DNA of 35,993 bases, taken from Promethearchaeota archaeon (lineage in GTDB: Archaea; Asgardarchaeota; Lokiarchaeia; Sigyniarchaeales; SOKP01). The stretch covers positions 1 through 35,993 of the forward strand of contig JAFGOA010000021.1 in NCBI GenBank assembly GCA_016926735.1, written 5' to 3'. Below the pieces are notes generated by a model that was not told the origin of the DNA, searched no databases, and saw only the letters and a program-made list of their open reading frames with translations. Both the position numbers and the translations under genes were made by a program. Position 1 is the stretch's first letter. The number at the start of each line of letters is the position of its first letter. Of the stretch, positions 748 through 29,829 are shown in pieces.

Positions 748-1362
748 TTAGAATTCTAAAAATCCAGGATCTTCAAAAACATCTTCAATATCTCGCTTTT
801 TGCGAATATCACTTTCATCATGTTCAGAGAATAAAGAATCCTCATCAGTTTTAATTCCTTCTTCTAGTTCTTCGGTCTCTAATTTCAATAAAACATCTTT
901 CTCAAGTCTTTTATATTTTTCTGCTTTAGCTTTCCAATCATTTACTTCATTGATATCGGCATTATCTTCTTCTTCTAATAGTTGAGCCGCTTTTATTCTG
1001 CATAAACTTGATAAAAGTGAGTAGGAAAGTGCGAGTTCTCCCCATTCATTATTTTCTTTTAATTTTGCAATACCTTTTTCTAGCCTTTGTAATTCTGTAT
1101 CTGCATAAAAAACATCAATAAAATCTCCAAAAGCATCAACAGGTTCTGATATAGAGTTGATCAATACTTCTTTTTCTAATCCACAATGACCACATTTGAC
1201 CTTAGCAAACCCCTCTTGTTTCTTTAAACTTTCCACTTTAACACTTTTTTCACCACAATCCTCATTTTATAGTAAGTCTATTAAATTTTGTGGGCAGGTG
1301 AAAATTTTTGGTAATTTTTTTACCCTTTTATATGTTTGCTGTTTTCTTTTTCTTCTTCCCAA
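748..1362 (-). CDS. elf1: Transcription elongation factor Elf1 with a C-terminal extension, interrupted by a 30-nt putative intron; join(complement(1288..1362),complement(748..1257)), 194 aa spliced
   Basis: TTG start at 1362 with AGGAGA just upstream. Reads MGRRKRKQQTYKRVKKLPKIFTCPQ|CGEKSVKV...AKVKCGHCGL...EPVDAFGDFID, matching the Elf1 pattern (MGRRK, FxCPxC, CxxC, EPVDxYxxxID). The ORF track shows only the downstream part (748..1236). Confidence 0.88.
1258..1287 (-). other. Putative 30-nt BHB-type intron in elf1
   Basis: Sense sequence AATTTAATAGACTTACTATAAAATGAGGAT contains an in-frame TAA. Removing it restores CPQCG. Central helix CCAC/GAGG (3 of 4 pairs), bulges AA|A and AT|T, intron stem ATTT(A)ATAG/CTAT(A)AAAT, exon stem including TTCACC/GGTGAA. 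Confidence 0.8.
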
Positions 1363-2670: not shown

Positions 2671-2688
2671 AATTAGTCAATACTAGCT

Positions 2689-3666
2689 ATGAAATGTCCA
2701 GCATGTAATATTGAAATGAAGACCTTGGTTGAAGGAATTTTTCAATGTCCTCAATGCAAAAAAATCACTAAAGAAAAAACTGAAAAAGAAGAGGAATTAG
2801 AAAAGAAATCAACACTTGAAGGGGAAATAATTAATGGAGATTGGTTTCATAAACATGTTTCGCTTAATTCAGCATATGAAGTATGTGAAAAAGGTATAAT
2901 TATCAACAAAACAGATACTAGAATGTTTGCTGTATTAATATGTCACAGCGCGTATTTAAAAGATGAAAGATATATAAGACTTTCTTGGTGGAAAAAATCT
3001 TTTTATCAACATGCTGGGATGATAAAAATATATGAACCTGATGTATTAATAAATTTAATTAAATCATTAGAGTCTCTCGATCGTGATTTTGATGAATTTT
3101 GGACATTTAAAGGTAAATTTAGAGAAAAAAAATCAAATAATGAAGAAGATTCAATAAAAGAAAAAAATCTAGAATTAATAAAATACAGAATAATTGAAAA
3201 TCGAACATGTCCTAATTGTCAAAAAAAAATGAAAAAAGAAAAATCTCACTATGAATGCCCCCATTGTGGGGAAATTGTTATCTTAGAGGGGTATAATCAA
3301 CCAATATTTAATATACCTCCTTCTGAACTTAAGTTAAATTTTCAAGGTAATTTTCCAATTAATTTTTATTTACCTGTAAGTGGGATAACGATAAAATGGC
3401 TTATGGGAGAATGGAAAGCTTTAGTTGTTATTTATTCTAAAGATAATCCTAATAAAAAATGGCTTAGATTTTATTGGTGGACAAGAGATTTAAAAAGTGT
3501 TCTTAAATACGGAATTACTGAAATTGGAGATGGATCAAAACTGGGTTGGAAAGCTCAAAAAGGGTCAGGAAACAGTAATATTTATAATAAAAAATTAATT
3601 AGGCCATTAATTGAATCTTTGAAAAAAATAGCTAAAGAATTAGATTGGAATATTCATCTTAATTAA
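2689..3666 (+). CDS. Internally duplicated protein: 2 x [C4 zinc ribbon + beta-beta-beta-alpha domain resembling the PC4/PUR fold]
   Basis: CPAC..CPQC and CPNC..CPHC zinc ribbons. Repeated IRLSWW/LRFYWW and IYEPDVLINLIKSL/IYNKKLIRPLIESL segments. Confidence 0.7.
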   Translation: MKCPACNIEMKTLVEGIFQCPQCKKITKEKTEKEEELEKKSTLEGEIINGDWFHKHVSLNSAYEVCEKGIIINKTDTRMFAVLICHSAYLKDERYIRLSWWKKSFYQHAGMIKIYEPDVLINLIKSLESLDRDFDEFWTFKGKFREKKSNNEEDSIKEKNLELIKYRIIENRTCPNCQKKMKKEKSHYECPHCGEIVILEGYNQPIFNIPPSELKLNFQGNFPINFYLPVSGITIKWLMGEWKALVVIYSKDNPNKKWLRFYWWTRDLKSVLKYGITEIGDGSKLGWKAQKGSGNSNIYNKKLIRPLIESLKKIAKELDWNIHLN

Positions 3667-3682
3667 AATTATATAATTTATC

Positions 3683-4825
3683 ATGTCTGAAAGTAAAGAT
3701 CAAACTTGGAAAAGCTTATTGGATGAATTTAAAAAAAGTGTAGAAAAAGTTATTGTTCAATTAGAAAAAAGAGATATCGAAAGAATACCTGGTTCTAGAG
3801 AGGCTCTTTTAAGACGACTAGAGGATATTAAAAATCAATTTCCCAAAAATCAAGGGGAAATATTCATTAAAGCAATTGATGACAAGATTCAAAATGCTTT
3901 CTTTCCTAGTACTCTAGACTTTAGTGAAGCTTTTAAGAAAATTTTAATATCACGCACTCATGAACAAGATTTTATTATAAATGAATTAATAAATGGATTT
4001 ATTTCATCAAAATCCAAAGCAATAGCTTCGGGAACACAAGTTCCTATTATTGATCGAATGGTAGAGGCTTTTAGTAGGAGAAATGATTTTCACATTGTTG
4101 ACCATCAATTTTATGCTATGTTTGGAGATCCAAATAATCCCAAACAATATATTAAAAAACAACTAGATGAGCTGGTAAAATTATTCGGTCTGGTTTCAAA
4201 AGAATTAATTATTGAAAAAGATAAAAGGAGAAGTGAAAAAAAAATCTATACTTTCTATACCTTTCCTGATGAGATCTTAAAAATACTTGAAGAAAAATAT
4301 TTAATTTTAGATGAAAAATTGGGATATACCTATGTTTCTGAAGAATTTGATCGAAATGTTTTTATTTGCATGTTTTTAGCAAATATTGCTATTAACCGTG
4401 AAAATCTTGATAAAATAGGCGGAGAATATACAATTAATGGAATATCTGCAATTTTCGCTTTAATTTTGTTACTAAGTTTTATGCCAAAATTATCTGTAAA
4501 TGAAGATAATCCAATACTTCGAGATCCAACATATAATGATAGTAATATGAGTGTTATTCCAAAATCATGGATGATGAAACAGGTACTGGATGACCTATTT
4601 GATCCATTGATTAAAATTATAGCATACAGGTTAGGTGGGGGATTATGGTATACAAAAATAATTGATTCAGATGTAAGAAAAAACCTAGTCAATCAAATTC
4701 GCTTTCTTATTAGAGATATTAACAAATGGATCCTCGGAGAGATGATAAGGATTGAAATACCGATATTTGTTGAAATCTCTAATATATTCACACAAATCTT
4801 TATTGATAGTAATAGAGATACCTAA
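3683..4825 (+). CDS. Uncharacterised protein with a probable central winged-helix
   Basis: 380-aa ORF in the operon. The segment YIKKQLDELVKLFGLVSKE...YTFYTFPDEILKIL resembles a WH recognition helix and wing. Confidence 0.65.
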   Translation: MSESKDQTWKSLLDEFKKSVEKVIVQLEKRDIERIPGSREALLRRLEDIKNQFPKNQGEIFIKAIDDKIQNAFFPSTLDFSEAFKKILISRTHEQDFIINELINGFISSKSKAIASGTQVPIIDRMVEAFSRRNDFHIVDHQFYAMFGDPNNPKQYIKKQLDELVKLFGLVSKELIIEKDKRRSEKKIYTFYTFPDEILKILEEKYLILDEKLGYTYVSEEFDRNVFICMFLANIAINRENLDKIGGEYTINGISAIFALILLLSFMPKLSVNEDNPILRDPTYNDSNMSVIPKSWMMKQVLDDLFDPLIKIIAYRLGGGLWYTKIIDSDVRKNLVNQIRFLIRDINKWILGEMIRIEIPIFVEISNIFTQIFIDSNRDT

Positions 4826-4848
4826 AAAACTAAGAAGAGGGAAATTAA

Positions 4849-6111
4849 ATGAGATTAGAAAAATGGACAGATATTCTACCAAGATATCAAACATTTCTTA
4901 GTCATATGAAACCTATCCTTAGAGAAACAAGAAGAATTATTGAGGATCTGGACCCTGATCTCTTATATGATCCTGAAGTGTTAGATAAAATAAGAGAAGA
5001 AGAAGAAAAAAGAAATGTAAGAAAAGTTCGAGCTTTATCTGAATTCTCTGCAATGTATAGATCAAATGTATATGAAATTATGAAGGATTTTATCACAAAA
5101 TACAAAGATAGAATTTCTTTAATTGATATAAAAGATTATATAATTGAATTTCTTCAAGAATCTGTAGATGCTTTAGCTATTTTAGGAAATATAACTAATC
5201 CTGATGAACGAAATTTAGAAAATACCTACTTATATAAATTAACTAAATTTATTGAAAATATTTTATTTCCAAGAGGTACATCTTTAAAAAAGATATATGA
5301 AAGATTGCTTGAATATGCACCTCAATTCTATGAATCACAAAGACATATACTTATGTCACACACTCATTATAGAGATGAATTAGAAAACAAGGATTTTTTC
5401 ATTATACCAGGGATGTCTCCCAAAGTATATCAAATTATAAATAATATTACATCGTTATTTAATTTGGATCCTAATTATGGGGATTTTCCCGAAAGAGAAA
5501 ATCATGAAATTCCTTTAATCTTAAAAAATGATGTTTTTTTGCCATATATTGATTCGATCGCTAGTGCCGAAGAAGATGCAATTGAAAAAATTGTTGAAAG
5601 AATAGGTCTAAGAGTAATAGATGGAATTTTCTTAGGTCCTAATGAAAAATTAGTAGATATTCTCTTGGACAATAATTATTTTAGAATAAATAAACAATCA
5701 GATGGGATAAGCAGACTTATTCCTCAATTTAGTAATGAAACACTTATTCTTTATTATTTAGCATTTGCTTCAAAGAGTAGAGGTTTTCTAACAAAAGAAA
5801 TAATTAATTGGATTGCAATGAATTTTGCTTTTTTGATATATATGGGTATTTTGAAATGGAAATTATCTGATGAGAATATTTTTTACGGTATATTTAAAGA
5901 TCTTCAGACAAATGAGAAGGTATTACCTTATTTAATGAAATTGATTTGTTTTCCAAATTATATAAGTTTAGATAAAATGCAAATAAGAGACTCTCCCCAA
6001 TATAGAAAAGAGATTTTTAATTTTATAGGATCACAGATTGATAATATTCAAAATTTAATTGATGAAGTTGGAAATCATTGTCAAAATATCGAAAATGAAA
6101 ATAATAATTAA
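4849..6111 (+). CDS. Uncharacterised, mostly helical protein in the SMC-like operon
   Basis: 420-aa ORF with a GAGGG RBS-like motif upstream and a 23-nt gap to the previous gene. Confidence 0.7.
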   Translation: MRLEKWTDILPRYQTFLSHMKPILRETRRIIEDLDPDLLYDPEVLDKIREEEEKRNVRKVRALSEFSAMYRSNVYEIMKDFITKYKDRISLIDIKDYIIEFLQESVDALAILGNITNPDERNLENTYLYKLTKFIENILFPRGTSLKKIYERLLEYAPQFYESQRHILMSHTHYRDELENKDFFIIPGMSPKVYQIINNITSLFNLDPNYGDFPERENHEIPLILKNDVFLPYIDSIASAEEDAIEKIVERIGLRVIDGIFLGPNEKLVDILLDNNYFRINKQSDGISRLIPQFSNETLILYYLAFASKSRGFLTKEIINWIAMNFAFLIYMGILKWKLSDENIFYGIFKDLQTNEKVLPYLMKLICFPNYISLDKMQIRDSPQYRKEIFNFIGSQIDNIQNLIDEVGNHCQNIENENNN

Positions 6112-6129
6112 CAATTATAGAAATAGGAT

Positions 6130-7215
6130 GTGAATAAAATTACGTTTAAAGATGAAGAAATAAAGGAAAGATTAGGTAAATATGGAGTGGTTTATTTACC
6201 ACAAGATATAAAAGAAGAAATTGATGATATTAAAGGAAATAACGAAATAAAAGAGCGATTAGAGGACTTTTTCAATGCTCTTATTAAATATGAAGAAATG
6301 GTAGAACAACTAAAAAAAACAAAATTATCACCTAATTTAACAGTATTATTATATGGTCCCCCTGGTACGGGAAAAACTTCCTTGACAAGAGCTTATTCTA
6401 AAAAATACAATATTCCTATGTGTATTGTTGAATCTGATCGATTGGTTTCACCACTTTTAGGGGATACTATTAAAAATTTAAGAAACGTTGTTGAATTATC
6501 AGCAGAAATAGCTAAAGAAAATGGTGTGTTTGTTTTGTTCTTTGATGAAATTGATGCTATTGGATCAGAAAGATCAAATATCCATGAGGTAGGTGAAATT
6601 AAAAGAGCTGTTATTTCGTTTCTCCAAGTGATTGATAGAGTTAATTATGAAGGATTACCTCTGGCTATTATAGGTGCTACAAATCATCAGCACCAACTTG
6701 ATTCTGCAATATGGCGTCGTTTTACTTTCCATTTAGAATTTAATTTTCCAGATTATGAAATGAGGAAAAGTATTATTGAGTCTTTTTTGATTAAAATTGA
6801 AAAGGCAAATATAGGAGTAGACAAAAAAATTCAAGAATCATTAGAAAACGAATATAAAAAAATTAAAGAAATACATCAAAGTCTAGAATCTAAATTTGGG
6901 CGTAGGATCAATGAATTTGAGGACAATATCTTATGGAATGAGGTTGAAAAAAAAATAAATTTGAAGGGATTAATACATCTAACAATAGGATATTCAGGCT
7001 CTGATATTGAAAGAGGTACAAGAGTTGCTATATTTAAAGTAATTCATACTGGTCTTTTAACATTTGATCTCTTTTATAACTCATTAAATCTTGTAGGAGG
7101 TACTGCCATTCATGTTGAAAGACAAGATGTTGTAAGTAATATCCAAACTACAGAAAAAAAACAAAATAAATATAGTGTAAATAAAAAAAAATCGTCTGGT
7201 CCTCCAGAAATTTAA
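6130..7215 (+). CDS. Single-module AAA+ ATPase, IetA-like
   Basis: Walker A GPPGTGKT, Walker B VLFFDEID, GEIKRAV, sensor-1 GATNH, arginine-finger region LDSAIWRRF, YSGSDI. GTG start. Confidence 0.9.
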   Translation: MNKITFKDEEIKERLGKYGVVYLPQDIKEEIDDIKGNNEIKERLEDFFNALIKYEEMVEQLKKTKLSPNLTVLLYGPPGTGKTSLTRAYSKKYNIPMCIVESDRLVSPLLGDTIKNLRNVVELSAEIAKENGVFVLFFDEIDAIGSERSNIHEVGEIKRAVISFLQVIDRVNYEGLPLAIIGATNHQHQLDSAIWRRFTFHLEFNFPDYEMRKSIIESFLIKIEKANIGVDKKIQESLENEYKKIKEIHQSLESKFGRRINEFEDNILWNEVEKKINLKGLIHLTIGYSGSDIERGTRVAIFKVIHTGLLTFDLFYNSLNLVGGTAIHVERQDVVSNIQTTEKKQNKYSVNKKKSSGPPEI

Positions 7216-7236
7216 AATTATATTTTTTCTTATAAT

Positions 7237-8274
7237 GTGATATATATGGAGGATAAAATTTTTGATCTTGATAATATAAAGCAATATTTTTATCCAATCG
7301 AAGAAATACAAAGTAAAATTAGTTATATTAATTCTATTCTTATTAAGAACAATAGTCTAAATCAATCCATTGAAAATTATGTTGAAAATGAAGAATTAAA
7401 AATAAATATTAAACAAAACGCTTCAAATATAAATGACCTAAGTTTAAAATTAATTAATATTATCAATAACAACTTAAAAAAATATATAATTTTTGAAGAT
7501 AATCTAATTAAGAAATATAAAGATGTTTACTTAAATAAAATAAAATTATTGAATGCAGATCAAAATTTTCTGAAAAAAATAGGGTTATTTCTTATAGACA
7601 CTAAACAAATCTCAAAAGTTATTCAAGAAACATCATATATTCCATCAATAACCTATAATAATTGGTCAGATTTATTAGATTCCCTCAAAAATAATTCATC
7701 GTTTATTGCTATAATCGATAAAATAGATAAATTTTACAATAAAATAATAAAAGAAAAATTAAAAGAAATTATTTCAAAAATTCCTAATGATATTAGTCCA
7801 ATAATTATCGCAGATTTTAAAAAAGAATTTCTGAAAAATCCTAATATTTCATTTAATGATTTCGTTAAAAATATCGAAAATAAACTAACAGAAAAAGAAT
7901 TTATAGAAAGAAAAGAAATAATAGAAGAATCAAGGGAAAAACAAAAAATCGAAGAATTAAAGAAAACTCAAGAAGAACAGAAAAAATCTTATGAAGATTA
8001 CTTTAAATATTCTGATAAAGAGTTTGAAAGAAGAAGAAGAAAAAAAAAAAGAGAAAAATTATCTGAAATCTCTGAGAAAGCAATTAAAAATGATACTATT
8101 AATGAAGAAATTACAGAAAAAATAAAACAATTTAAATCTAAATTTGGAAACTCATTTGAAGAAAAATATCTTATTCAAAAAGATGATAATAAAGATCCTC
8201 TTAATATAATCCGTGAAAGAAAGAAAAAAAAAGAAGAAGAATACAAAAAGTTCCTAAATAAATTGAAAGAATAA
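7237..8274 (+). CDS. Charged coiled-coil protein (start may be ATG at 7246)
   Basis: 345-aa ORF with a K/E/R-rich C-terminal half (EFERRRRKKKREK). Confidence 0.7.
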   Translation: MIYMEDKIFDLDNIKQYFYPIEEIQSKISYINSILIKNNSLNQSIENYVENEELKINIKQNASNINDLSLKLINIINNNLKKYIIFEDNLIKKYKDVYLNKIKLLNADQNFLKKIGLFLIDTKQISKVIQETSYIPSITYNNWSDLLDSLKNNSSFIAIIDKIDKFYNKIIKEKLKEIISKIPNDISPIIIADFKKEFLKNPNISFNDFVKNIENKLTEKEFIERKEIIEESREKQKIEELKKTQEEQKKSYEDYFKYSDKEFERRRRKKKREKLSEISEKAIKNDTINEEITEKIKQFKSKFGNSFEEKYLIQKDDNKDPLNIIRERKKKKEEEYKKFLNKLKE

Positions 8275-8293
8275 TAAAAAAGTGTGATTTAAT

Positions 8294-9868
8294 ATATCTA
8301 AAAATGAATTTAAAATATCAATAGGCAATAATAATATCGCTATAAAAGATAAATATACGATTATTTCTGGAAATATTGATAAAAATAATTTTAATTCTTC
8401 TAATGATAATAATCTTTTTCAAACTTATGATAAATTTGATAATCTTTCTTTAGATGGTTTTCTTTCAATTATTAGTCAATTTGAAAAAACATTTAAAAAA
8501 TTAGAGAAGTATAGTGAAATGCTATCTTTTTTAAAAATATTCAGAAAGGTTTCCAATAACAATATTTCAATTCTTGATGATATTATAAATTTAATAGAAT
8601 CCACATACACATATTCAAATACTATTCTCTTAAAAAATGAGATCAGATCACTCCAAGAGGAATTAGAATTATCAACTATTAGAGATAAATCAAGTTTATT
8701 ATCCGCAAAAACTGATTTTATTCATAAAATGGAATTAAATATTGAAAAAAACAGTGAAAAATTATCCTTTTTAGAAGAGGATTATCAAAAAATAAAAAAA
8801 AAGAAAGATAAAATTGAGAAAAAGATCCAGAAGTATAAAGAAGATGTTAAAGAGCTTTCACAAAAAAAAAAAGATAAATTTGATGTAATTAATAAAATTA
8901 CACGAAATATGGAAGATCCAGATAATAAAAGTAATGAAATATTAATTGAAGCAAATCTTTCAAATTCAGAAATGATTAAAAAACTTAGAATTGAAGCAAA
9001 AGAAATCCATAACCAAATTAATCAGACTAAATTAGATTTAAATGAATCAAATGAAGAATTAAAAAAAATAGCGCCAAAATATAATCTCTATAAAAAAGAT
9101 TATGATGATCTTAGTTCAATTATACAAAAAGAAAGCATAAAATTAAAGGAAACTAAAATTGAAATCGATAAAGAAACATCTGATAATATCAAAACAGATA
9201 CGGGAAAAATAAATCAGTTTGGAAAAATTAGATCTTCTGATACCATAAAAAGAGATTTAAATGAGAAACAAAGAGCTTTAAATCAGATAAATCTTTTTAA
9301 AAATTCTTTAAAAGTAAAGGCTAAAGAAGACTTTTCAGGATTAAGAAAAAAAATATCTGATATTACGACATTTATCAATAAAAATCAAGAAAAAATCATA
9401 TTTTTTCCGAATGAAGGTGATATAATTTCAAGTATTGAAAATTTCAGGGATTTGGAATTATTGACAATTAAAGTAGAGGATCAATTAAATCAATTTCTTC
9501 TGACAATTAATCTAAAAGCTGAATTAAAAATAAAATTAGAAACAAAAGAATTCTTTATCCAAATATCATTTATCCGAAATAATAAAGAAATTGTTAAATT
9601 TGAGAATTTGACAACACCAGAAAAAGTCTTTTTTGTTATAATGTTCTATATTTCTATGAAGATCATTCTTAAATTTAAGAATATTATTTTTTCAAATCTA
9701 TTTATTCATCAAAATTATAATAAAAGAGGATCTCTATTTAGGACAATAGAAAAAATAATCCCGATATTTAAAACTAACAAACAATTGGCAGATAAAAATC
9801 TTATTTTTATTATATCCAATTTTGAGATGAATAGATCAATTAGTAATGTAAAATTAATAAAAATTTAA
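8294..9868 (+). CDS. Degenerate SMC/Rad50-like coiled-coil protein with ATPase motifs eroded; probable non-canonical ATA start at 8294 (ORF track ATG at 8519)
   Basis: The frame is open from 8288. The extension encodes KDKYTIISGNIDK at the Walker A position. There is a long central coiled coil. The C-terminal FENLTTPEKVFFVIMFYISM...NIIFSNL occupies the LSGGEK...hhhhDE positions. Confidence 0.65.
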   Translation: MSKNEFKISIGNNNIAIKDKYTIISGNIDKNNFNSSNDNNLFQTYDKFDNLSLDGFLSIISQFEKTFKKLEKYSEMLSFLKIFRKVSNNNISILDDIINLIESTYTYSNTILLKNEIRSLQEELELSTIRDKSSLLSAKTDFIHKMELNIEKNSEKLSFLEEDYQKIKKKKDKIEKKIQKYKEDVKELSQKKKDKFDVINKITRNMEDPDNKSNEILIEANLSNSEMIKKLRIEAKEIHNQINQTKLDLNESNEELKKIAPKYNLYKKDYDDLSSIIQKESIKLKETKIEIDKETSDNIKTDTGKINQFGKIRSSDTIKRDLNEKQRALNQINLFKNSLKVKAKEDFSGLRKKISDITTFINKNQEKIIFFPNEGDIISSIENFRDLELLTIKVEDQLNQFLLTINLKAELKIKLETKEFFIQISFIRNNKEIVKFENLTTPEKVFFVIMFYISMKIILKFKNIIFSNLFIHQNYNKRGSLFRTIEKIIPIFKTNKQLADKNLIFIISNFEMNRSISNVKLIKI

Positions 9869-9887
9869 AAATTAGGTATTATATAAA

Positions 9888-10394
9888 ATGTCAAGTGAAA
9901 TAAATCAACAAGATATTACGAAAATAACCAAAATAATTCTAACTAATAAACAAAAGATAATTCGAGAAGAAGATTTACAAAATTTAGTTGATAGTTCATA
10001 TGAATTCAATGAAGTTATTAATATTATATATGCTAATCTAAAAGAAGTAGGATTTGAACTTATAACAACTACTTTTTTGGATCAGAAATATTATATTTTG
10101 ACATCGGATGGGAAAGATGATAATATCACCCCAAGTCAATACGGTATTATAGCTGTTTTATTTGCATTAAGTAAAGAAATTGATGAAAATCTAAAATTGA
10201 ATGATATTAAAGATATATTCTCACAAGTATGGGATTCCGATGTAAAGTATTTAATAGAAAATGATTATCTACGAAAACAATCAATTGACAATTTAGAAAT
10301 TATCAAAATAACTCCTTTAGGTAAAGCACTATTGAAAAATATACATAAAGATCTCCAATTAAAAAATCTTATTGATATTTTTAAAAAAGAATAA
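9888..10394 (+). CDS. Tandem winged-helix protein, kite-like (MAGE/Nse3/Nse1/MksE/ScpB class)
   Basis: FNEVINIIYANLKEVGFEL...YYIL, TPSQYGIIAVLFAL and W...YLIENDYL...ITPLGKALL patterns. Lies directly downstream of the SMC-like gene. Confidence 0.6.
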   Translation: MSSEINQQDITKITKIILTNKQKIIREEDLQNLVDSSYEFNEVINIIYANLKEVGFELITTTFLDQKYYILTSDGKDDNITPSQYGIIAVLFALSKEIDENLKLNDIKDIFSQVWDSDVKYLIENDYLRKQSIDNLEIIKITPLGKALLKNIHKDLQLKNLIDIFKKE

Positions 10395-10414: not shown

Positions 10415-10831
10415 TTATTCTAAATCTAATTTAAATTGTTCAAAAATCTTTTTTACTCTTTCTGCGGATGGTCCTTCCCCTCTAACACCATTTTCATCGA
10501 CTAGAATTTTACCGTTTAGTATTGAAATTAAATTTTGATCTTCTTTATAAGAAACATGCCCCTTAGAAAAAATAGTAGCTATTCTATCAGCTAGGGCTTC
10601 CATAGGAAAAGGTTCATCTTCTATAGTCATATAACTATAAAAAGAATTTTGGATCAAAATCGTGGGATATGGTTTATTTCTATTATCTTTAACATTTGAA
10701 AGAATTAAGTTTGAATTTTCAGATACACCCTTTAATAATCCTACAAAATATTTTTCATTGTCAATATATACTTTTACAGTCTTATCAATTAATTTTTGTA
10801 ATTCTGTATTATACTCTCTGCCAATAGACAT
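10415..10831 (-). CDS. Sm-like (Lsm) protein with C-terminal domain, SmAP3 type
   Basis: Sm1 motif LIDKTVKVYI...FVGLLKGV...NLILSNV. C-terminal domain ends ILVDENGVRGEGPSAERVKKIFEQF. Confidence 0.85.
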   Translation of the reverse strand: MSIGREYNTELQKLIDKTVKVYIDNEKYFVGLLKGVSENSNLILSNVKDNRNKPYPTILIQNSFYSYMTIEDEPFPMEALADRIATIFSKGHVSYKEDQNLISILNGKILVDENGVRGEGPSAERVKKIFEQFKLDLE

Positions 10832-11659: not shown

Positions 11660-12577
11660 TTATCTTATTTTTCTAAATTTATATTTAAATATTATATATG
11701 ATCCTAACAATCCACCTAAATCAGGAAGATAAGCAACTATATAATACAAATCAATAAATATCATAAAAAATCCTGGAAGCAGAACTAAAAGGACTATTAA
11801 CAATAACATAATCTTCCCTTTCATTCTAACAGGGACAAACATAATTAACATTGTCATTTCAGTATTCATACTAAAGAAAATCAAAAATGATATTATTCCT
11901 ATAACTCCTCCAAATGCAAGCCCAATAGGGAGTATTGGTAAGTCTGGAGTTGTGAGATAAAAAGGAAGCCAAAGTAAAATATATAATAATCCTGAGAAAA
12001 AAGCAGATATTAGATATAATTTTAGTAAAAAAATACCTCCAAATCGCATCTCAATAATTCTGACAGTGTTATAAAAAAATAATATAAAGAAAAATAAGAT
12101 AAATATTCCTAAAAAATCTCCTGTATAATAAACAAAGGATGAAGTAAAAAAAGTCCAGATATAATAATTTAAAAAGCTAAATGAACTAAGACAAAGTGCT
12201 AGTGTAAAATCATCACGAATAATAGCCGCAATAGATAATATTAAAATACTAAGGATAAGATAAGTTGAGACATTTGAAGTAGGAGATTCTCTAATATGCC
12301 TCTCATAAATCTTACTAGCTCTTCTTTTCTTCTTTTCTTCTTTTTTTAAAAATTTGTTCATTTTCTTTTCTTCATTGGAAGCTGAATATTTTATTGATTT
12401 TTCATCAATATCCTTTCTTCTTTTTCTTTGAGATATTGATGATGGTATATGTTTTATTTCAAATGTACAATTATGATTCTCTGGAAGTCTATGATCCTTA
12501 CAAAAAGTTCCTCCACAATATTTGCACTTAAACGGGAGATACCCCATTTCTTCATTACAATGATCGCAATATGGCAC
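11660..12577 (-). CDS. AN1-type zinc finger fused to a rhomboid-like membrane domain, catalytic residues absent
   Basis: CDHC...[24 protein letters not shown] (AN1). [16 protein letters not shown]...LYLIS, FVPVRMK and LGGLLG rhomboid landmarks. GTG at 12577 is preferred because it parallels MPYC in the neighbouring gene. Confidence 0.8.
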
Positions 12578-12746
12578 TTTTTTTACCTTTAATCTTGCTT
12601 TTATAATCAATAAGAAATATATTATAAGTTTATAAATTGAAACTATAATTTAAAATAACTCCTTAGTAATTAAAGTTATGATTGAAAATTATATATAAAA
12701 AAAAGAACTATTTCATAAAAGAAAAAAAAATAATTTGTTGTTATTC

Positions 12747-19509: not shown

Positions 19510-20229
19510 ATGTCTGAAAATTTAATATGTGGAATTGATGAGGCCGGGAGATCCAATTACATCTCGTAATAAAACCCCAAAGGCCCTGTCTTTGGTCCAA
19601 TGGTATTATGTGGTGTATGCTATAATGCATCTGAATTACAATATTTAAATGATATTGGTGTAAGAGATTCTAAACAACTTACTCCTAATAAAAGAACAAA
19701 ATTAGCTACCTTAATAAAAAAAAAATGCATTGGTTTTAAGGAGGTTCATGTATCCTCTGAAGAGATAGATAATCGAGAAGTAAGTAATATTTCATTAAAT
19801 CAACTTGAAGTTAATAAAATAGTTGAAATAATTGATACTTTGGAGCCAGATATTATATATATCGATGCTGCAGATGTAAATGAGGAAAGATTTGGTCAAA
19901 ATATTGAAAAACTTTTATCTTACAAACCAAAAGAGATAATATCTAAGCATAAAGCAGATGAAATTTACCCCATTGTATCTGCAGCTTCAATAATTGCAAA
20001 AACTAGTAGAGATACCGTAATAAATAGTATTAGAACTATTAATATAAATGATGGGCATGGAGATATCGGATCTGGATATCCTTCTGATAGAAAAACAACA
20101 GAATTTTTACGAAATTGGATAAAAAAATATAAAAAAGTTCCAGATTTTGCAAGAAAATCTTGGAAAACAACACAAAGAATCATAGATGAAGAATTAAATA
20201 ATAAAAAGATAACTGAATTTTTTAGCTAA
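19510..20229 (+). CDS. rnhB: Ribonuclease HII interrupted by a 30-nt putative intron; join(19510..19550,19581..20229), 229 aa spliced
   Basis: ATG at 19510 gives MSENLICGIDEAGR|GPVFGPMVLCG. Downstream motifs GVRDSKQL, IYIDAAD, HKAD, VSAASIIAK and GSGYPSD. The ORF track start (19600) lacks the catalytic DE motif. Confidence 0.93.
19551..19580 (+). other. Putative 30-nt BHB-like intron in rnhB
   Basis: ATCCAATTACATCTCGTAATAAAACCCCAA contains in-frame TAA TAA. Removing it restores DEAGRGP. Central helix (C)GGG/CCC(C), bulges AG|A and AA|A, exon helix GGCC/GGCC, internal hairpin ATTAC-ATCTC-GTAAT. Confidence 0.8.
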
Positions 20230-23105: not shown

Positions 23106-23931
23106 AAATACAATCAAAACAACAAAAATCAACAATATTTCGGATGAATGTGAAGATATTAGGACAATTACATTTCATTTAGAAACTTCTTCTAAACCAA
23201 AGCCTGGACAATTTGTTATGATATGGGTTCCTGGAATTGATGAAATTCCTATGTCTATTTCTAACTATGATGAAAACGGGATTTGGGAAATAACTGTAAA
23301 AAAAATTGGTGATTGCACTCAAGCCCTTTTTAAATTAAAAAAAGGTGATTATATTGGAGTAAGGGGGCCATTAGGTAATTATTTTATTATACCTAAAGAA
23401 AAGGATACAAGAATAATCTTAGTTGGTGGTGGGATAGGACTAGCGCCTTTAAGATTTTTATCTTCAGAACTAAAAAAAAAAGAAAAGGAATTTCAATTTA
23501 TTATAGGAGCAAAAAAGGTCAATGAACTGGTGTTTGTAGATGATCCTAGTAATTATCTTGAAAATCACTACTATTGCACTGATGATGGGAGTTTTGGAGA
23601 AAAGGGTTATACTTCAGATATTTTTGAAAAAATTATAAATGAGATCCCTCTTAAAGAGTATAAAAACTTAGTTGTATATACATGCGGTCCAGAGATAATG
23701 ATGTTAAAAATACTAAATATTTGTATAAAAAATGGTATTCAATTATTTGCTAGTTTAGAAAGAATTATGAGATGTGGTTGTGGATTATGTGGATTATGTG
23801 TTCTCGATCCATTAGGGTTATTAGTATGTAGCGATGGTCCCATTTTTAATAGAGACACCTTAATAAAAATAAAAGATTTTGGAAAGAAAAAGAGAGATTT
23901 TTCTGGAAAAAAAATAAAATTAGGGTCCTAA
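23098..23931 (+). CDS. pyrK: Dihydroorotate dehydrogenase electron-transfer subunit
   Basis: KPGQFVMIW, RGPLGN, GGGIGLAP, TDDGSFG, CGP and CGCGLCGLC...VCSDGP (2Fe-2S). Overlaps the end of pyrD. Confidence 0.92.
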   Translation: MTENTIKTTKINNISDECEDIRTITFHLETSSKPKPGQFVMIWVPGIDEIPMSISNYDENGIWEITVKKIGDCTQALFKLKKGDYIGVRGPLGNYFIIPKEKDTRIILVGGGIGLAPLRFLSSELKKKEKEFQFIIGAKKVNELVFVDDPSNYLENHYYCTDDGSFGEKGYTSDIFEKIINEIPLKEYKNLVVYTCGPEIMMLKILNICIKNGIQLFASLERIMRCGCGLCGLCVLDPLGLLVCSDGPIFNRDTLIKIKDFGKKKRDFSGKKIKLGS

Positions 23932-25341
23932 ATTCTTAAACATCTCACTAAGATCTTTTAATAACTTATCATAAAATATTTCTTTTGTAAGTTCAAATTT
24001 TTGAATTCCTTGAACTCTCCTAATTCTCATTTGTAATCCCGGAATAAGGTCTGCTTCCTCTAAATAAATTGCTAAATAAGGTTTTTTTTGATTAATTGCA
24101 AAATGAATTTCATCTTGAGTATTATCCGAATTATTTACATTATTTGAAATAAATGATAAAAATACACTACTATTCATTAATTTCTCTGCGATTGTATTAC
24201 ACCAATCTTTCGATAATGGGATACCCTCATCATACCATATATTGAATCCTTGTTTATATATTTCATTTAGAATTGGGTAAACTTCTGCTTTATCTTTATG
24301 TGTATAACTTATAAATAAATAAGGATCATCTCCCATATATGATGAAAAAGGAGGCTCGATATCGATATCAGTTGTTGATTCCTTTATACTACCCCTTAAA
24401 TATTTCTCCAAATCAGTCTCATTTTTTGGTAATTTGGGATCGTTAAGCAGAGAAAACTTTTTCAGAATTTTATTTACTTGCTTTTGGTCTTTCATAATTT
24501 TATCAATTACGTTATAGGAATCAATTATTAATTTTACAGGTAGAGCTTCCTTATTATCTACTTTAATGTATCTTGTAATTAGATTTACAACCTTTTTTAC
24601 AACCCATGTTTCAATATCATCTTTCTCCTTTGAAATGTCTTTGGTTGATTTACCTGCATATTCCCCTGACCAATCTAAAATTACTAAATTTTGTTTTTCA
24701 TAAATATATATTTTATAACCATCTTCAAACATTATGCTTGGATCTTCTTTAAAAAGACTTTGAGTAGCTAATAAATCCAATCTCTTTTTTATTGAATTAT
24801 AAAACTTACTCTCAACACTAAAAGGTAGATCATCTACATTTAGTACGTTTTTACTTATCAACATCAAATAAATAGCCATTTGATGTAAACATAATCCTCC
24901 AGGTTTACCAATCTTACAATCACAATCTCTATCTATTGTATCATTATTTATTTGTAATGAAGATTTATGAGATCCATATTTTCCTTTATACCAAACAGTA
25001 TAACCATTTCCTCCGCCAATTATTGCAGCATTCTGTATCGTTTCTACTCTATTTTCTCCACTTATTAATTCAATACCTTTATTCATCAGATCATTCACAA
25101 ATTCACTCTCATGTTCTCTATATATTTGTTCCTTCCTCTTTTCAGAAATAGTTGAATCTAATAGGGTTATCAATTCTTCTTTTTTTAATTTTGAATATCC
25201 CTTTATTTTCTCTTCATTTTCTTTAGTTGATTCATTATAATCATGGAGAATCTCTTTTACTTTTAAAGCTGTAATAGAAAATAGAAATGTACGGAAATTT
25301 AAATATTCTAATTTTTCTTTTTTAGATATCTTTTGTGACAT
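23920..25341 (-). CDS. SWIM zinc finger plus C-terminal TIR domain protein
   Basis: N-terminal helix-extension-helix-like KGYSKLKKEELITLL. SWIM CDC-x8-CLH. TIR: PYLFISYTHKD, GFNIWYDEGI, VFLSFIS and TQDEIHFA. Start placed at MSQK (25341). Confidence 0.85.
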   Translation of the reverse strand: MSQKISKKEKLEYLNFRTFLFSITALKVKEILHDYNESTKENEEKIKGYSKLKKEELITLLDSTISEKRKEQIYREHESEFVNDLMNKGIELISGENRVETIQNAAIIGGGNGYTVWYKGKYGSHKSSLQINNDTIDRDCDCKIGKPGGLCLHQMAIYLMLISKNVLNVDDLPFSVESKFYNSIKKRLDLLATQSLFKEDPSIMFEDGYKIYIYEKQNLVILDWSGEYAGKSTKDISKEKDDIETWVVKKVVNLITRYIKVDNKEALPVKLIIDSYNVIDKIMKDQKQVNKILKKFSLLNDPKLPKNETDLEKYLRGSIKESTTDIDIEPPFSSYMGDDPYLFISYTHKDKAEVYPILNEIYKQGFNIWYDEGIPLSKDWCNTIAEKLMNSSVFLSFISNNVNNSDNTQDEIHFAINQKKPYLAIYLEEADLIPGLQMRIRRVQGIQKFELTKEIFYDKLLKDLSEMFKNLGP

Positions 25342-25429
25342 ATGCATTAATATTAACAATATATAAAAAATTATAGGAAAATACATAGAATACAAAAAAG
25401 ATTTTTTCAAATGAAGTATTATATAAAAT

Positions 25430-27055
25430 ATGGATAAGAATTTAGAGGATACAATAAAATTAAAAAAGCTTTCAAAAGAAATTATAAGCTATATAATCAG
25501 TAATCCTCATATCTCCAAAGATAAAATTACAAATATAAAAGCAAAATTAGGAAAAAAATATCATATTAAGAATGTTATAAAAAATGCAACAATCCTATAC
25601 TATGCTACAACAGAGGAAAAAAAAAAAATAATTCCTATATTAAAAAGAAGAAAAACAAGGACACTTTCTGGTGTTTCTGTAATTGCTATTATGACAAAAC
25701 CATTACTTTGTCCTGGAGAATGTGTTTTTTGTCCTGGAAAAAATTCTCAACCTTTTGAAAAAGTGGCACAATCTTATACTGGCAGAGAACCTGCTGCTAT
25801 GCGATCTATTCATTATAATTACGATCCTTATCTACAGGTTCAAAGTCGAATAGATGATCTTGAAAGTATTGGGCATAAGGTAGATAAAATTGAACTTGTC
25901 GTTATGGGTGGAACATTTCTATCAACAGATATCTCATATCAAAGGGAATTTATCAAAGGAGCATTAGAGGGTATAGTTGAAGAGAGAACATCTTCATTAG
26001 AAGAGGTTAAAAAAAAAGCAGAAACCTCTAAACGAAGATTAGTAGGAGTTACTATAGAAACTAGACCTGATTATTGTAGAACAAATGAAATCGATTTAAT
26101 GTTGAATTATGGTACGACTCGAGTTGAAATTGGAATCCAAACTATCTATGATGAAATATATAAGATTGTGAAAAGAGGCCATTCCATAGAAGATAGTATA
26201 CAAGCCATAAGACTGGCTAAAGATGCAGGTTTGAAGATTAATGCTCACATAATGCCTAATTTACCTAATTCTGATTATTATAAAGATTTAGAAATGTTTG
26301 ATGTTCTATTTAATAATCCTAATTATCGACCAGATATGTTAAAAATTTATCCAACAATAGTGATAAAAGGGACTATTTTGTATAATTGGTGGAAAGTGGG
26401 AAAATATAATTCTTATCCATTGAATAAATTGGTTGAATTAATTGCTACAGCAAAAAGCAATCTTCCACCTTATGTAAGAGTTCAGAGAATAATGCGGGAT
26501 ATACCCGCTAATTTAATTGTGTCAGGATGCAAAAAGAGTAATTTAAGACAATTAGTTAAAAATAAATTAAAAGAAATGAATCAGAAATGCAATTGTATAA
26601 GATGTCGTGAATATGGAATTGTAAAAAATTCGAAAATCCTCGAAGATAATTCATTAGATAATGTTAAATTATATCGTATAGATTATGAAGCTTCTAAAGG
26701 TCAAGAAATATTTCTATCCTATGAAAATAAAAAAGAAGGATTTTTGGTTGGATTTCTCCGTTTAAGAAAACCTTCAGAATTAGCTCATAGACCTGAATTA
26801 AATGATGGTAAAACAATGATTGTTAGGGAAGTACGCGTGGTTGGTGAATTAGTACCGAAAGATGTAAAACCAAATGGATTAACTCAAATTCAACATAGAG
26901 GATATGGAAAACAATTAATGCAAAATGCAGAAAAAATATCATTAGAAGAATTTGCTTCTAGAAAAATAGCAGTTATTAGTGGTATAGGTGTTCGAAATTG
27001 GTTTTATGATTTGGGTTATAAATTAGATGGTCCCTATGTTTCTAAAAAATTATAA
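25430..27055 (+). CDS. elp3: Elongator Elp3 (radical SAM + GNAT; tRNA U34 carboxymethylation)
   Basis: RTLSGVSVIAIMTKP, CPGECVFCPG, QSYTGREPA, TIETRPD, DMLKIYP, RVQRIMRDIP, QHRGYG and VISGIGVR. Confidence 0.96.
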   Translation: MDKNLEDTIKLKKLSKEIISYIISNPHISKDKITNIKAKLGKKYHIKNVIKNATILYYATTEEKKKIIPILKRRKTRTLSGVSVIAIMTKPLLCPGECVFCPGKNSQPFEKVAQSYTGREPAAMRSIHYNYDPYLQVQSRIDDLESIGHKVDKIELVVMGGTFLSTDISYQREFIKGALEGIVEERTSSLEEVKKKAETSKRRLVGVTIETRPDYCRTNEIDLMLNYGTTRVEIGIQTIYDEIYKIVKRGHSIEDSIQAIRLAKDAGLKINAHIMPNLPNSDYYKDLEMFDVLFNNPNYRPDMLKIYPTIVIKGTILYNWWKVGKYNSYPLNKLVELIATAKSNLPPYVRVQRIMRDIPANLIVSGCKKSNLRQLVKNKLKEMNQKCNCIRCREYGIVKNSKILEDNSLDNVKLYRIDYEASKGQEIFLSYENKKEGFLVGFLRLRKPSELAHRPELNDGKTMIVREVRVVGELVPKDVKPNGLTQIQHRGYGKQLMQNAEKISLEEFASRKIAVISGIGVRNWFYDLGYKLDGPYVSKKL

Positions 27056-27069
27056 AAATATAAAAAAAA

Positions 27070-29646
27070 CTATTGAGGGTTATTAAGATAATCTAGTAAT
27101 TTTTGAGCCTCTTCCACTAAAGGATTTGGATTATCTATTTCATTCCAATAATTAAGAGCATCTTTTACAATCTCTTTAGCTTTTTCAACATCATTTACAC
27201 GGATTAAACTTAATGATAGATAATAACAAGCCATCCCTGCTAAGTTATAATCTTTTCGTTCAATTGATGAATTTTTTACTATTGTATAAAGCTCTACAGC
27301 TTTCCCATAATTTTCTTGAGAAAAATAAACTCCAGCTAGATTTATCATAGTAATATCCCTTAATCCGATTTTATTTGCCTTTTCAGCAAGTTGAATTGAT
27401 TCATTATATTGTTCTATTGCTTTTCCAAGATCTCCTGATTTCACAGTAATATTAATAATATTTGCTTTTGTTGTTAATATAGCGGGAATATCCTCTATCT
27501 CTTGAAATATTTCTAAAGCTTCCGTATAATATTTCAGCGCATCTTCCAATTTTTCCATTCTATAATATAAATTTCCGATATTTGCTGTTGAATTCGCCAT
27601 CATTTTGATTTGTCCTGCTTTTTTTTTATTCTCATATGATTTCAGATAATTTTTTAAGGCTTCTTCATATCTTCCTTGTTGCTCCAAGAGAATTCCAAGA
27701 TTATTATAAATATTTGCGGCTCTCCCTTCTAAACCCAATTTATTTGCCTCGATAAGCGCATTGTTATAGATTTCAATAGCTTTTCCAAAATTACCTTGAA
27801 ATTGAACAGCTAATCCCATTTTTTCCCACATATCCATTATTAATATAGCATCATCAACTTCATTTATTAATGAATTTGTTTCTATCAAAATATCATAAGC
27901 TCCCGAGTAATCTCCACTTTCAAATTTAAAATCAGATTCTGTTAATTTTGCTCTCGCAATACCTTCTTTATCTCCAGAAAGATAGGCTTTCTCTTTTGAT
28001 AATTTAAGATTTTTTATTGCTAATTCATTCTCACCTTTATCAAAATTTAGCCTTGCTAAATTTCTATAAGCTTTTGATAAAAGTTCATCATCATAAAGTC
28101 TGGTAAAAATCTCTATTGCTTTATTCGTATCCTTCTCAGCAATTTCTATATTTCCTAACTCTGATTCAGTCAATGATTTACTTGAATAAGCTAATCCTAA
28201 TGTAAATTCCTCACCATTTTTAATAGATAATTCTATCGCTTCATTATATGCGTCTAGAGCGTCTTGAAATTTACCAAGATTATTATAAAGAACCCCTAAT
28301 CCAAGTAATGATGTGATAATCCCATAATAATCATTGTTTTCTCTCCATATTCTAACTACTTCTTCCATATTTTTCTCTGCTTTTACATATTCTCCAAAAA
28401 GTTGTTGCATCTTTGATATCTCATAAACAGAAGTTATATATCCTTCTTTATCTTCTATAATCTTAAATTCTGCCATAGCTTTTTCGTAATAAGAAATAGA
28501 TTCTTGATTCTCATTAAAATTTCTTAAAACTTTTCCATACTCGTTAAACAATATTGCTTTTACACGAGCGTTCATTTTATACTTATCAATGTTTTCCATT
28601 AAATCTTCTAAAATTGATCTTACTTGTTCTTTTAATCCTGTAGTATATCCAATATCAATTAAGATAAGTAAAGACACAATTTCCCCCCTTTTCTTAGCCC
28701 AATTTAAAGAATGATTTTTAATTTTCTCTAGCTTTTCTTGTTTTATTTTTTCAATCTTATTTTCTTTTCTTTCAAATTCTTTGGGTGGGGTTATATTGTT
28801 TGGTAAGAGTGTTTTTAAATTATCTAACCAATTAGGTAAAGTACCATAATCAATAATTCCTCGATCATTGCCATAAAGGTCACTTAATTCTATAACTGCT
28901 TTTGGAGGTTTTGCATTTTCCAAAAAAAGCCATAGATAACCAGGAGAATCATTCATTCTATGTCTTAATCCTAAATAATTAGGTTCGGCATCTAGATCTG
29001 CCCCTGAATAACCTAAAAATATCCAAAAATTCTGTGCTCCTATAATATTTAACACTTGGGTGATTTTATGATCTAAACCTTGTTTTCTTTGTTTCAATGT
29101 ATCTATACAAGTCTCTGGACGAGTAGCTGTACCATGTAATTTTAATAATAAGCAAGAATTATCATCTTCATTTGAGTTCTCTAGTAATTTGAGAATTTCC
29201 TTATACTCCTCTGGATCGACATAAACCTTTATAGATGCTCCAACCATTTTAAATGCTTTCTCAATAAGTGTATCGAAGTTTGTTGTTATAATCAATTTAA
29301 TTTTTCCTATTTTTGCTAAAGTAGCTAACCATAAATGAATTTGATTAGGAATATCCCCTTCTAAACCTTGTAAAACTTCAAAATATGATTCACCAATCCT
29401 ATCACTTATAATTTCAGAAACATATTCCGGTGGAAGTTTACCTTCTTCTTCTCTTAATTTTATTAAATTTGTAAAATTGGGAATCTCAGGATTAATTGAA
29501 CTGGATAAAATGGTAAGAGAATCAAGAATTATATGATTTACTTCCCACCAACTTGGCAAACTGGACGGTGGAATCATTGAAACTCCGGCACCAATAAAAA
29601 AGACTGCTTTTTTGTTCTCTATTATCTCTAAAATTTTTTGATTCAT
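27070..29646 (-). CDS. SIR2-like domain fused to a long TPR array
   Basis: FIGAGVS...LPSW, IITTNFD, LKLHG and FLGYSG, followed by many ~40-aa TPR units (e.g. NNLGILLEQQGRYEEALKNY). Start is ATG 29646 or TTG 29658. Confidence 0.88.
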   Translation of the reverse strand: MNQKILEIIENKKAVFFIGAGVSMIPPSSLPSWWEVNHIILDSLTILSSSINPEIPNFTNLIKLREEEGKLPPEYVSEIISDRIGESYFEVLQGLEGDIPNQIHLWLATLAKIGKIKLIITTNFDTLIEKAFKMVGASIKVYVDPEEYKEILKLLENSNEDDNSCLLLKLHGTATRPETCIDTLKQRKQGLDHKITQVLNIIGAQNFWIFLGYSGADLDAEPNYLGLRHRMNDSPGYLWLFLENAKPPKAVIELSDLYGNDRGIIDYGTLPNWLDNLKTLLPNNITPPKEFERKENKIEKIKQEKLEKIKNHSLNWAKKRGEIVSLLILIDIGYTTGLKEQVRSILEDLMENIDKYKMNARVKAILFNEYGKVLRNFNENQESISYYEKAMAEFKIIEDKEGYITSVYEISKMQQLFGEYVKAEKNMEEVVRIWRENNDYYGIITSLLGLGVLYNNLGKFQDALDAYNEAIELSIKNGEEFTLGLAYSSKSLTESELGNIEIAEKDTNKAIEIFTRLYDDELLSKAYRNLARLNFDKGENELAIKNLKLSKEKAYLSGDKEGIARAKLTESDFKFESGDYSGAYDILIETNSLINEVDDAILIMDMWEKMGLAVQFQGNFGKAIEIYNNALIEANKLGLEGRAANIYNNLGILLEQQGRYEEALKNYLKSYENKKKAGQIKMMANSTANIGNLYYRMEKLEDALKYYTEALEIFQEIEDIPAILTTKANIINITVKSGDLGKAIEQYNESIQLAEKANKIGLRDITMINLAGVYFSQENYGKAVELYTIVKNSSIERKDYNLAGMACYYLSLSLIRVNDVEKAKEIVKDALNYWNEIDNPNPLVEEAQKLLDYLNNPQ

Positions 29647-29829
29647 TGCCCTTCTCAATCTATTTATAAATAACCTTATTAATATCTGAGTACTAAAAAT
29701 TTAAAGTTTTTGAAAAAATATTCAATTCTTATTTTTAAAATATAAATATTTGATTCTGATTTTCTTACCTAAACTAATAAAAAATTTTTGTAAAATAAAT
29801 AATAAATTCTAACAATTATTTGATTCAAT

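Follow-up and report, generated by a model that had tools for sequence, protein, structure and literature searches.

A probable bulge-helix-bulge intron in the catalytic motif of the RNase HII gene (rnhB) of a family of Asgard archaea

[quoted passage not shown] Among archaeal pre-mRNAs, BHB introns have been shown for cbf5 of the Desulfurococcales and Sulfolobales (Watanabe 2002; Yokobori 2009, PMC2738675), and the accessible part of the 2009 paper states that splicing of other coding genes had been predicted and never confirmed. [quoted passage not shown] For Asgard archaea, a preprint describes tRNA introns as abundant (10.64898/2026.10.13.758758); mRNA introns are unmentioned in that portion of its text which is accessible. 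Here we present a computational analysis of a stretch of 35,993 nucleotides (nt), contig JAFGOA010000021.1 of a Promethearchaeota archaeon, hereafter called the window, in which rnhB, the gene for RNase HII, is interrupted within the catalytic DEAGRGP motif by 30 nt at 19551-19580. With a probability of about 0.85, as judged from comparative sequence analysis, we regard these 30 nt as a genuine BHB intron that is spliced from the rnhB pre-mRNA by EndA.

The rnhB gene starts with the ATG at 19510; its first exon reads ATG TCT GAA AAT TTA ATA TGT GGA ATT GAT GAG GCC GGG AG, with the final GAT GAG GCC GGG AG ending at 19550. It is followed by the insert ATCCAATTACATCTCGTAATAAAACCCCAA (19551-19580) and, from 19581, by A GGC CCT GTC TTT GGT CCA ATG, the onset of exon 2, whose TAA lies at 20227-20229. 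The unspliced frame, read from the ATG at 19510, gives ...DEAGRSNYIS and then TAA TAA (19567-19572). These letters of exon, insert and exon, and the unspliced translation, had been read exactly in the preliminary description of this DNA. Removal of the 30 nt restores DEAGRGP, a universal motif, and the predicted spliced product contains the junction-spanning peptide DEAGRGPVFGPM. As A stands at both flanks, the boundaries 19552-19581 are equivalent to 19551-19580. The parts of the gene are as follows (a slash marks a cut or junction here and below).

19510..19550, forward strand: rnhB exon 1, which consists of 13 codons for MSENLICGIDEAG and of 2 further nt that open an Arg codon; relatives have the same N-terminal coding sequence.
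19551..19580, forward strand: predicted BHB intron of 30 nt; 12 family members that have no intron lack it precisely, with AGG directly behind AG.
19567..19572, forward strand: two in-frame TAA stops inside the intron.
19581..20229, forward strand: rnhB exon 2, A GGC CCT ... TAA, the remainder of RNase HII (Pfam RNase_HII positions 15-199).

The list of open reading frames (ORFs) holds at this locus just one of 209 amino acids (aa), which extends from an internal ATG at 19600 to 20229. Its Pfam match (19600-20226) covers the RNase_HII profile from position 15 to position 199 of 199 (E = 4.7e-39), and its nearest named relatives come from metagenome-assembled 'Promethearchaeota archaeon' genomes. 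The phylum Promethearchaeota belongs to the archaeal kingdom Promethearchaeati and corresponds to the Asgard archaea. The profile positions 1-14 comprise the catalytic Asp-Glu pair. A six-frame hidden Markov model (HMM) search of the genome (3.88 Mb, 99% complete, 238 contigs, G+C content of 26.2%) returned a sole RNase HII match, at 19528-20172, which covers profile positions 1-199 and carries '2 TAA' inside. The preliminary description had raised the question of another intact rnhB elsewhere in the genome, and none was found by this search of the whole 3.88 Mb. Because translation of an unspliced mRNA could yield nothing more than a peptide of 19 residues, or else a protein that is truncated at the N-terminus and devoid of the catalytic Asp-Glu, the prediction that active RNase HII depends on splicing of rnhB is supported.

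The comparison with relatives indicates that the interruption is not a peculiarity of one assembly. In 12 of 40 relatives the rnhB match either has stops in it or does not start before profile position 8, and inspection of their DNA revealed, as in this genome, an insert of 29-31 nt at the identical site, which in all 13 sits behind GGN AG and ahead of A GGN CCN; 12 other sampled members of the family have an uninterrupted GGN AGA GGN CCN. A search of the family with the pattern GAYGARGCNGGNMG-N24-40-RGGNYCNRT identified the insert, 28-31 nt in length, in 81 of 135 genomes, once in each, while the reversed pattern, used as a control, gave 0 matches. The remaining 54 genomes have no match to the pattern, and the 12 of these that were checked have an uninterrupted rnhB. 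Pattern and HMM agree in all 25 family genomes examined by both (intron present in 13, absent in 12). Counted by genus for the relatives only, i.e. with this genome excluded, the pattern was matched in g1 (3/3), g6 (5/6), g10 (1/1), g11 (50/54), g3 (4/7), g9 (1/2), g5 (3/10) and g2 (13/42), and was not found in genera g8 (0/5), g7, g12, g13 and g4 (0/1 each).

Outside the family, the pattern was detected in just four of 265 genomes of a 400-genome sample of the phylum (G033, G332, G335 and G354). We treat these four matches as chance, because none of them ends in the GGNCCNGT context and because the reversed pattern gave five matches in the same search; one of them (G335), when read through, is an open frame. 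It might be argued from the 238 contigs of the assembly that the insert arose as an error of sequencing or assembly in a metagenome-assembled genome, yet diverged homologous inserts occur in 80 other assemblies, in some of them on contigs of megabase size, which makes this explanation exceedingly improbable. The rnhB insert is heritable and specific to the family, and it is not an assembly error.

The RNA structure around the insert was analyzed by comparison of copies. RNAalifold, applied to 13 sequences, predicted three helices independently: an outer helix between GAYGARGC of exon 1 and GNCCNGTC of exon 2, a central helix of 4 bp between the last bases of exon 1 and the 3' end of the intron, and a hairpin of 9 bp with a 5-nt loop within the intron. 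In this genome the elements are placed as follows.

19537..19544, forward strand: 5' strand of the outer helix, exon 1, GATGAGGC; pairs with 19583-19590.
19545..19548, forward strand: 5' strand of the central helix (H), exon 1, CGGG; pairs with 19575-19578.
19549..19551, forward strand: 5' bulge A G / A, with the 5' cut expected after G19550 from BHB geometry and reading frame.
19552..19574, forward strand: inner hairpin, 19552-19560 with 19566-19574; loop 19561-19565 (ATCTC).
19575..19578, forward strand: 3' strand of the central helix (H'), intron, CCCC.
19579..19582, forward strand: 3' bulge A A / A (G), with the 3' cut expected after A19580.
19583..19590, forward strand: 3' strand of the outer helix, exon 2, GCCCTGTC.

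The two bulges are located on opposite strands at opposite ends of the central helix, and on the 3' strand the inner helix directly adjoins the central one; G19582 either stays unpaired or, in this genus, pairs with C19545. As both flanking helices are present, the outer one between exons and the inner one within the intron, the motif is of the hBHBh' form. Cuts made two bases 3' of each strand of the central helix would excise exactly 19551-19580 and keep the reading frame. The descriptions of the BHB motif in the accessible parts of two papers (10.64898/2026.10.13.758758 and PMC5829648) agree with this rule of cutting.

The explicit structure was counted on an alignment of 51 distinct copies, obtained from 53 loci after two identical duplicates had been dropped, with two kinds of controls, in which the 3' partners were slid by 1-3 columns or the alignment was shuffled (500 shuffles). 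Standard pairs occupy 91.9% of the cells, as compared to 29-48% with slid partners, and in 11 of 20 pairs both partners have changed. Covariation scores 0.391 for the structure, as compared to 0.07-0.09 with slid partners and 0.218 for shuffles, and 0 of the 500 shuffles attained the score of the structure. In the inner hairpin 86.6% of the cells are paired and compensatory changes are seen in all 9 pairs; in the central helix (alignment columns 24-27/55-58) the paired fraction is 93.1%, with double changes in two of its four pairs. The most informative pair is that between the exonic Gly codon, at its wobble base, and the intron base opposite to it; these two form U-G in 25 copies, G-C in 13, C-G in 7 and U-A in 5, and are unpaired in 1. 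The 5' bulge has 3 nt and reads AG/A in 47 of the 51 copies, and the 3' bulge, of 3-4 nt, reads AA/AG in 34, AC/AG in 8, AT/AG in 7, AC/GG in 1 and AA/GG in 1. The mutually complementary GC-rich patches noticed in the preliminary description do pair in the minimum-free-energy fold (GGCC/GGG with CCC(C)...GGCC), and its relaxed BHB with 3 G-C central pairs holds for this genome; most relatives have the full 4 bp (4/4 pairs in 37 of 51 copies, 3/4 in the other 14).

The inserts also share a set of coding properties. An in-frame stop is present in all 51 distinct copies (49 TAA, 11 TAG and 3 TGA in total). The length is 30 nt in 47 copies, 29 in two, 31 in one and 28 in one, so that in 4 of the 51 it is not a multiple of 3 and the frame is shifted. 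After removal of the insert the junction codon is AGA in 49 copies and AGG in 2 and thus encodes the Arg of DEAGRG in every copy. The DEAG codons and exon 1 as a whole are intact among the intron-bearing copies, and the exon-2 frame is open for more than 150 aa in 13 of the 13 intron-bearing loci available at full length, which one would not expect if the gene were dead, given the G+C content of 26%. At the position of 19600 the Met codon is not conserved in the alignment, with TTA, CTG or CTT in several intron-bearing relatives; therefore independent translation of exon 2 is no conserved option. Taken together, the facts about stops, frame, junction and exon 2 exclude read-through, recoding and a pseudogene far better than any single sequence does. 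As a side observation, the intron would be of phase 2, and its junction, NAG/AGG, resembles MAG/R, the 'protosplice' context of eukaryotic spliceosomal introns; the likeness is probably a coincidence of Arg-Gly codons.

Two explanations that dispense with splicing have to be weighed against these data. Gene callers would report the 209-aa ORF at 19600-20229, and in keeping with this rnhB could be a pseudogene, or could be expressed just as a truncated protein from the ATG at 19600, the insert being a tolerated disruption. We consider this very improbable: the insert occupies a single site across 81 species-level genomes and its compensatory changes preserve a BHB, the DEAG codons, junction Arg and exon-2 frame are preserved as described above, and a protein started at 19600, from a Met codon that the relatives do not conserve, would be without profile positions 1-14. 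Alternatively, the ribosome could cope with the insert without any splicing, either by programmed translational bypassing of the phage T4 gene 60 type or by recoding of the stop codons, to which the shortness of the insert, its location within the coding region and a length divisible by 3 in 47 of 51 copies would lend themselves. To this we give practically no credence, as all three stop codons are used and four copies shift the frame, read-through would add about 10 variable residues to the catalytic loop, the covarying structure is an exon-intron BHB and not an arrangement of take-off and landing sites, and the genes of the window (translation table 11) end at ordinary stops and match full-length Pfam profiles.

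In bypassing of the T4 gene 60 type the ribosome skips a gap between matched take-off and landing codons. At rnhB the gap starts inside a codon (AG/A), the flanking Gly codons differ (GGG and GGC), and their use would delete the conserved Arg, so that this candidate was rejected. A self-splicing intron of group I or II was rejected as well, the insert having only 28-31 nt as against a ribozyme core of hundreds of nucleotides; no Rfam family was found at gathering score anywhere in the window.

We therefore return to the BHB intron and propose the following course of events. In the transcript, GAGGC of exon 1 would pair with GCC... of exon 2 as the outer helix, CGGG of exon 1 would pair with the CCCC at the 3' end of the intron as the central helix, and the middle of the intron would fold into the hairpin. 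This would leave AG/A and AA/A in bulges on opposite strands, each directly beyond the central helix. EndA would cut after the second base of each bulge, and a ligase of the RtcB type would then join ...GGG AG to A GGC CCT..., by which the Arg codon of DEAGRGP would be recreated. Splicing is presumed to be constitutive. The preliminary description had proposed an archaeal BHB-type intron in DEAGRGP and a splice-dependent RNase HII, and both proposals gain support from the conservation and covariation in the relatives and from the lack of a second rnhB. A search of sequencing runs gave no RNA run that contains the rnhB locus, and in three metatranscriptome contig sets of the same study 0 records were found at it; neither result counts for or against splicing.

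It had further been suggested that expression is possibly regulated and that a GAGAT/ATCTC hairpin could compete with the splice-competent fold. In its developed form this explanation accepts the BHB intron as real and makes its removal a switch that gates RNase HII, by a competing fold or by limiting EndA, in a manner resembling HAC1/XBP1, whose splicing gates a transcription factor. The in-frame stops in 51 of 51 copies, which render the unspliced mRNA non-productive, are compatible with such a switch, and so are the narrow range of insert lengths (28-31 nt) and the partial conservation of the loop; moreover, the authors of the cbf5 study proposed a role as a negative regulator for the cbf5 intron (PMC2738675, accessible part). 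The GAGAT/ATCTC complementarity is indeed present in this genome, but it is not conserved across the family: it pairs in 50.0% of the cells of the 51-sequence alignment, is equalled by 497 of 500 shuffles, and its slid versions are equal or better. Chance alone would also be expected to produce stops in an A+T-rich stretch of 30 nt, and a switch of this kind would have to be dispensable, since the 54 of 135 family genomes without the pattern include, among the 12 checked as uninterrupted, sisters of intron bearers. We conclude that regulated splicing is unlikely, and that the suggestion of regulation finds no support, in view of the competing hairpin, which does no better than its controls, and of the many family members without the intron.

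Constitutive removal of a BHB intron would call for the archaeal splicing enzymes. This genome encodes two proteins of the EndA family, of 203 and 202 aa, on different contigs (PF01974 over cut-off, both matching TIGR00324 endA). Their genes lie in the region of 8963-9190 on contig C33 and in the region of 19024-19269 on contig C100. The two paralogues are 27% identical; against fused EndA models, the alignment of one falls on the catalytic half at the C-terminus and that of the other on the N-terminal half, and the latter has a weak match to the beta subunit. Asgard EndA is reported, in the accessible part of the source, to be an (alpha-beta)2 enzyme that has a broad-specificity L1 loop (PMC5829648), and the two paralogues presumably form such an (alpha-beta)2 enzyme. 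Introns were called by aragorn in 19 of the 52 tRNA genes of this genome, and therefore the splicing pathway must be in use. The positions of these tRNA introns cluster at about 32-41, and in length they extend from 8 to 736 nt, although the longest among them may be artefactual calls.

Against the BHB intron stand several observations. Although 98.0% of the cells of the outer helix are paired, it exhibits one-sided changes only and no double changes, and because both of its strands are coding it adds no covariation support. The motif is relaxed and not strict, because the 3' bulge has 4 nt when the 4-bp helix forms. Within the family, the copy of this genome stands at the weak end: its central helix has 3 of 4 pairs (three G-C pairs and a C19545.C19578 mismatch) and its inner helix 6 of 9 (three mismatches), and it is thus a somewhat degenerate member. 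The fold of 19520-19610 as a single sequence still reproduces BHB-like pairing, but it is not better than those of shuffled sequences (z = -0.48; 58 of 200 as good), and therefore the evidence is comparative and not thermodynamic. Finally, RtcB (PF01139) was not found in the 99%-complete assembly, neither with the HMM nor by tblastn with RtcB of the relatives. Among the 21 genomes in which relatives were searched, 19 have the protein, all three congeners of this genome among them, and its absence here is likely due to a gap in the assembly.

The distribution of the intron within the family allows for some inferences about its history. In a maximum-likelihood tree of RNase HII (37 sequences; two intron-less rows of genus g8, L014 and L016, were left out) the family forms one clade with support of 98/95, whose first split has intron bearers on either side. 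At least 8 changes of intron state are required on this tree, and at least 4 are forced by the well-supported branches alone; the sister pairs G018/G007 and G011/G021, both well supported, differ in the intron. Because length, architecture and loop consensus are common to the introns, the simplest and most likely reading is that the intron was gained once, near the base of the family, and was later lost precisely on several occasions, although lateral replacement by recombination may have contributed to the pattern, which was derived from a gene tree with midpoint rooting. For the cbf5 intron, too, gain and subsequent loss have been proposed, and the loss may there have come about by reverse transcription of spliced mRNA (PMC2738675, accessible part).

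If the intron is genuine, automatic annotation of these genomes gives a catalytically headless RNase HII. Its presence in a catalytic motif and in the sister lineage of eukaryotes would mean that protein-only splicing of mRNA is no crenarchaeal oddity, and splicing of Asgard mRNA would become directly testable. The 81 genomes, with polymorphism of presence and absence within genera and at least 4-8 events of gain or loss, would provide a natural system for the study of intron loss and of the rules by which EndA acts on mRNA.

We also considered that rnhB is the tip of a wider, unannotated use of EndA and RtcB for mRNA splicing in Asgard archaea, with a splicing checkpoint at least for rnhB. 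More coding genes would then carry short BHB introns and would be rendered by gene callers as truncated or split ORFs, and the production of RNase HII, a genome-maintenance nuclease, would be coupled to the state of the tRNA-splicing machinery. This extension is doubtful. A genome-wide scan for coding introns, with three structural tiers, a filter for ORF restoration and position-shifted decoys, yielded 15,113 candidates against 12,952 decoys in the relaxed tier, 950 against 775 in the mid tier and 58 against 46.5 in the strict tier, i.e. an excess of 17-25%; with a looser filter there were 154,989 candidates and about 158,446 decoys. The top 40 rows of the scan resemble ordinary gene boundaries, and rnhB is in neither the mid nor the strict tier. 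The scan does not discriminate, because a short BHB at 26% G+C holds too little information in the absence of homology, and its outcome has no bearing on the existence of further introns. Among the 30 ORFs of the 36-kb window, no other split gene (a truncated Pfam domain beside a matching fragment) was found. The scan also returned, on the minus strand of another contig (C167) near 16850, a perfect BHB-like hairpin of the strict tier, 26 nt long, between frames of 509 and 250 codons; together with the T-run after it, it most likely marks a gene boundary or terminator.

The other genes of the window were surveyed with Pfam. They include those for fibrillarin, Nop5, archaeal S-adenosylmethionine (SAM) synthetase, Elp3, GatD/GatE, an Lsm protein and an Elf1-like zinc ribbon. 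Several of the genes are eukaryote-flavoured.

748-1236, reverse strand: Elf1-like protein.
10415-10831, reverse strand: Lsm protein with Lsm_C.
11660-12610, reverse strand: AN1 zinc-finger protein.
25430-27055, forward strand: Elp3.

Elp3 is flanked by two genes on the reverse strand which, from their domains, look like anti-phage defence or NAD-signalling (nicotinamide adenine dinucleotide) genes.

23920-25410, reverse strand: protein of 496 aa with a C-terminal TIR domain (TIR_2 / ThsB_TIR).
27070-29658, reverse strand: protein of 862 aa with SIR2_2 and TPR.

An uncharacterized cluster of same-strand ORFs is located in the first third of the window.

1576-10394, forward strand: run of ORFs of 325-449 aa, mostly without a Pfam match, several with GTG starts.
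6130-7212, forward strand: AAA ATPase within this run.

Set beside the known systems, the rnhB intron has the layout of the canonical tRNA BHB. The BHB introns of archaeal tRNA and rRNA, which are processed by EndA and RtcB, exhibit the same motif of two bulges, a 4-bp helix and flanking helices, with a cut in each bulge. Unlike them, the rnhB substrate is an mRNA, whose exon strands are constrained by codons (GAG GCN GGN / GGN CCN), and its 3' bulge has 3-4 nt. The HVO_1309 intron of Haloferax volcanii likewise places an EndA substrate in an mRNA and its removal matters for expression (PMC7714728, accessible part), but its place is the untranslated leader and its host is a euryarchaeon, whose enzyme is homodimeric, whereas the intron of rnhB lies in the reading frame and within a catalytic motif. 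HAC1/XBP1 resembles rnhB in the protein-only removal of a short intron, by an endonuclease and a tRNA ligase or RtcB, with an altered product (PMC13149111, accessible part); it differs in that IRE1, and not EndA/TSEN, acts on paired stem-loops under stress regulation, and no homology is implied.

The closest counterpart is cbf5, whose intron, like that of rnhB, is a short BHB in the coding sequence that has to be removed to obtain a functional protein. According to the accessible part of the source, the cbf5 intron occurs in lineages with a hetero-oligomeric EndA of broad specificity, was inherited from a common ancestor and underwent secondary losses (PMC2738675), and the same pattern is seen for rnhB. 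On the other hand, cbf5 encodes the dyskerin homologue and is interrupted in another phylum, while the rnhB intron belongs to Asgard archaea (Promethearchaeota); splicing of cbf5 was shown experimentally, and that of rnhB is so far predicted. In this genome cbf5 is an open frame of 361 aa without stops, and no stops were found in any cbf5 (TruB_N) match in 60 of the 61 family genomes searched; the rnhB intron is therefore of the same kind as the cbf5 intron but not a member of its family. A full-text literature search, whose coverage leaves most subscription journals outside, found no report of an rnhB intron or of a BHB intron in Asgard mRNA. Within that literature rnhB would be, after cbf5, the second archaeal coding gene with a BHB intron.

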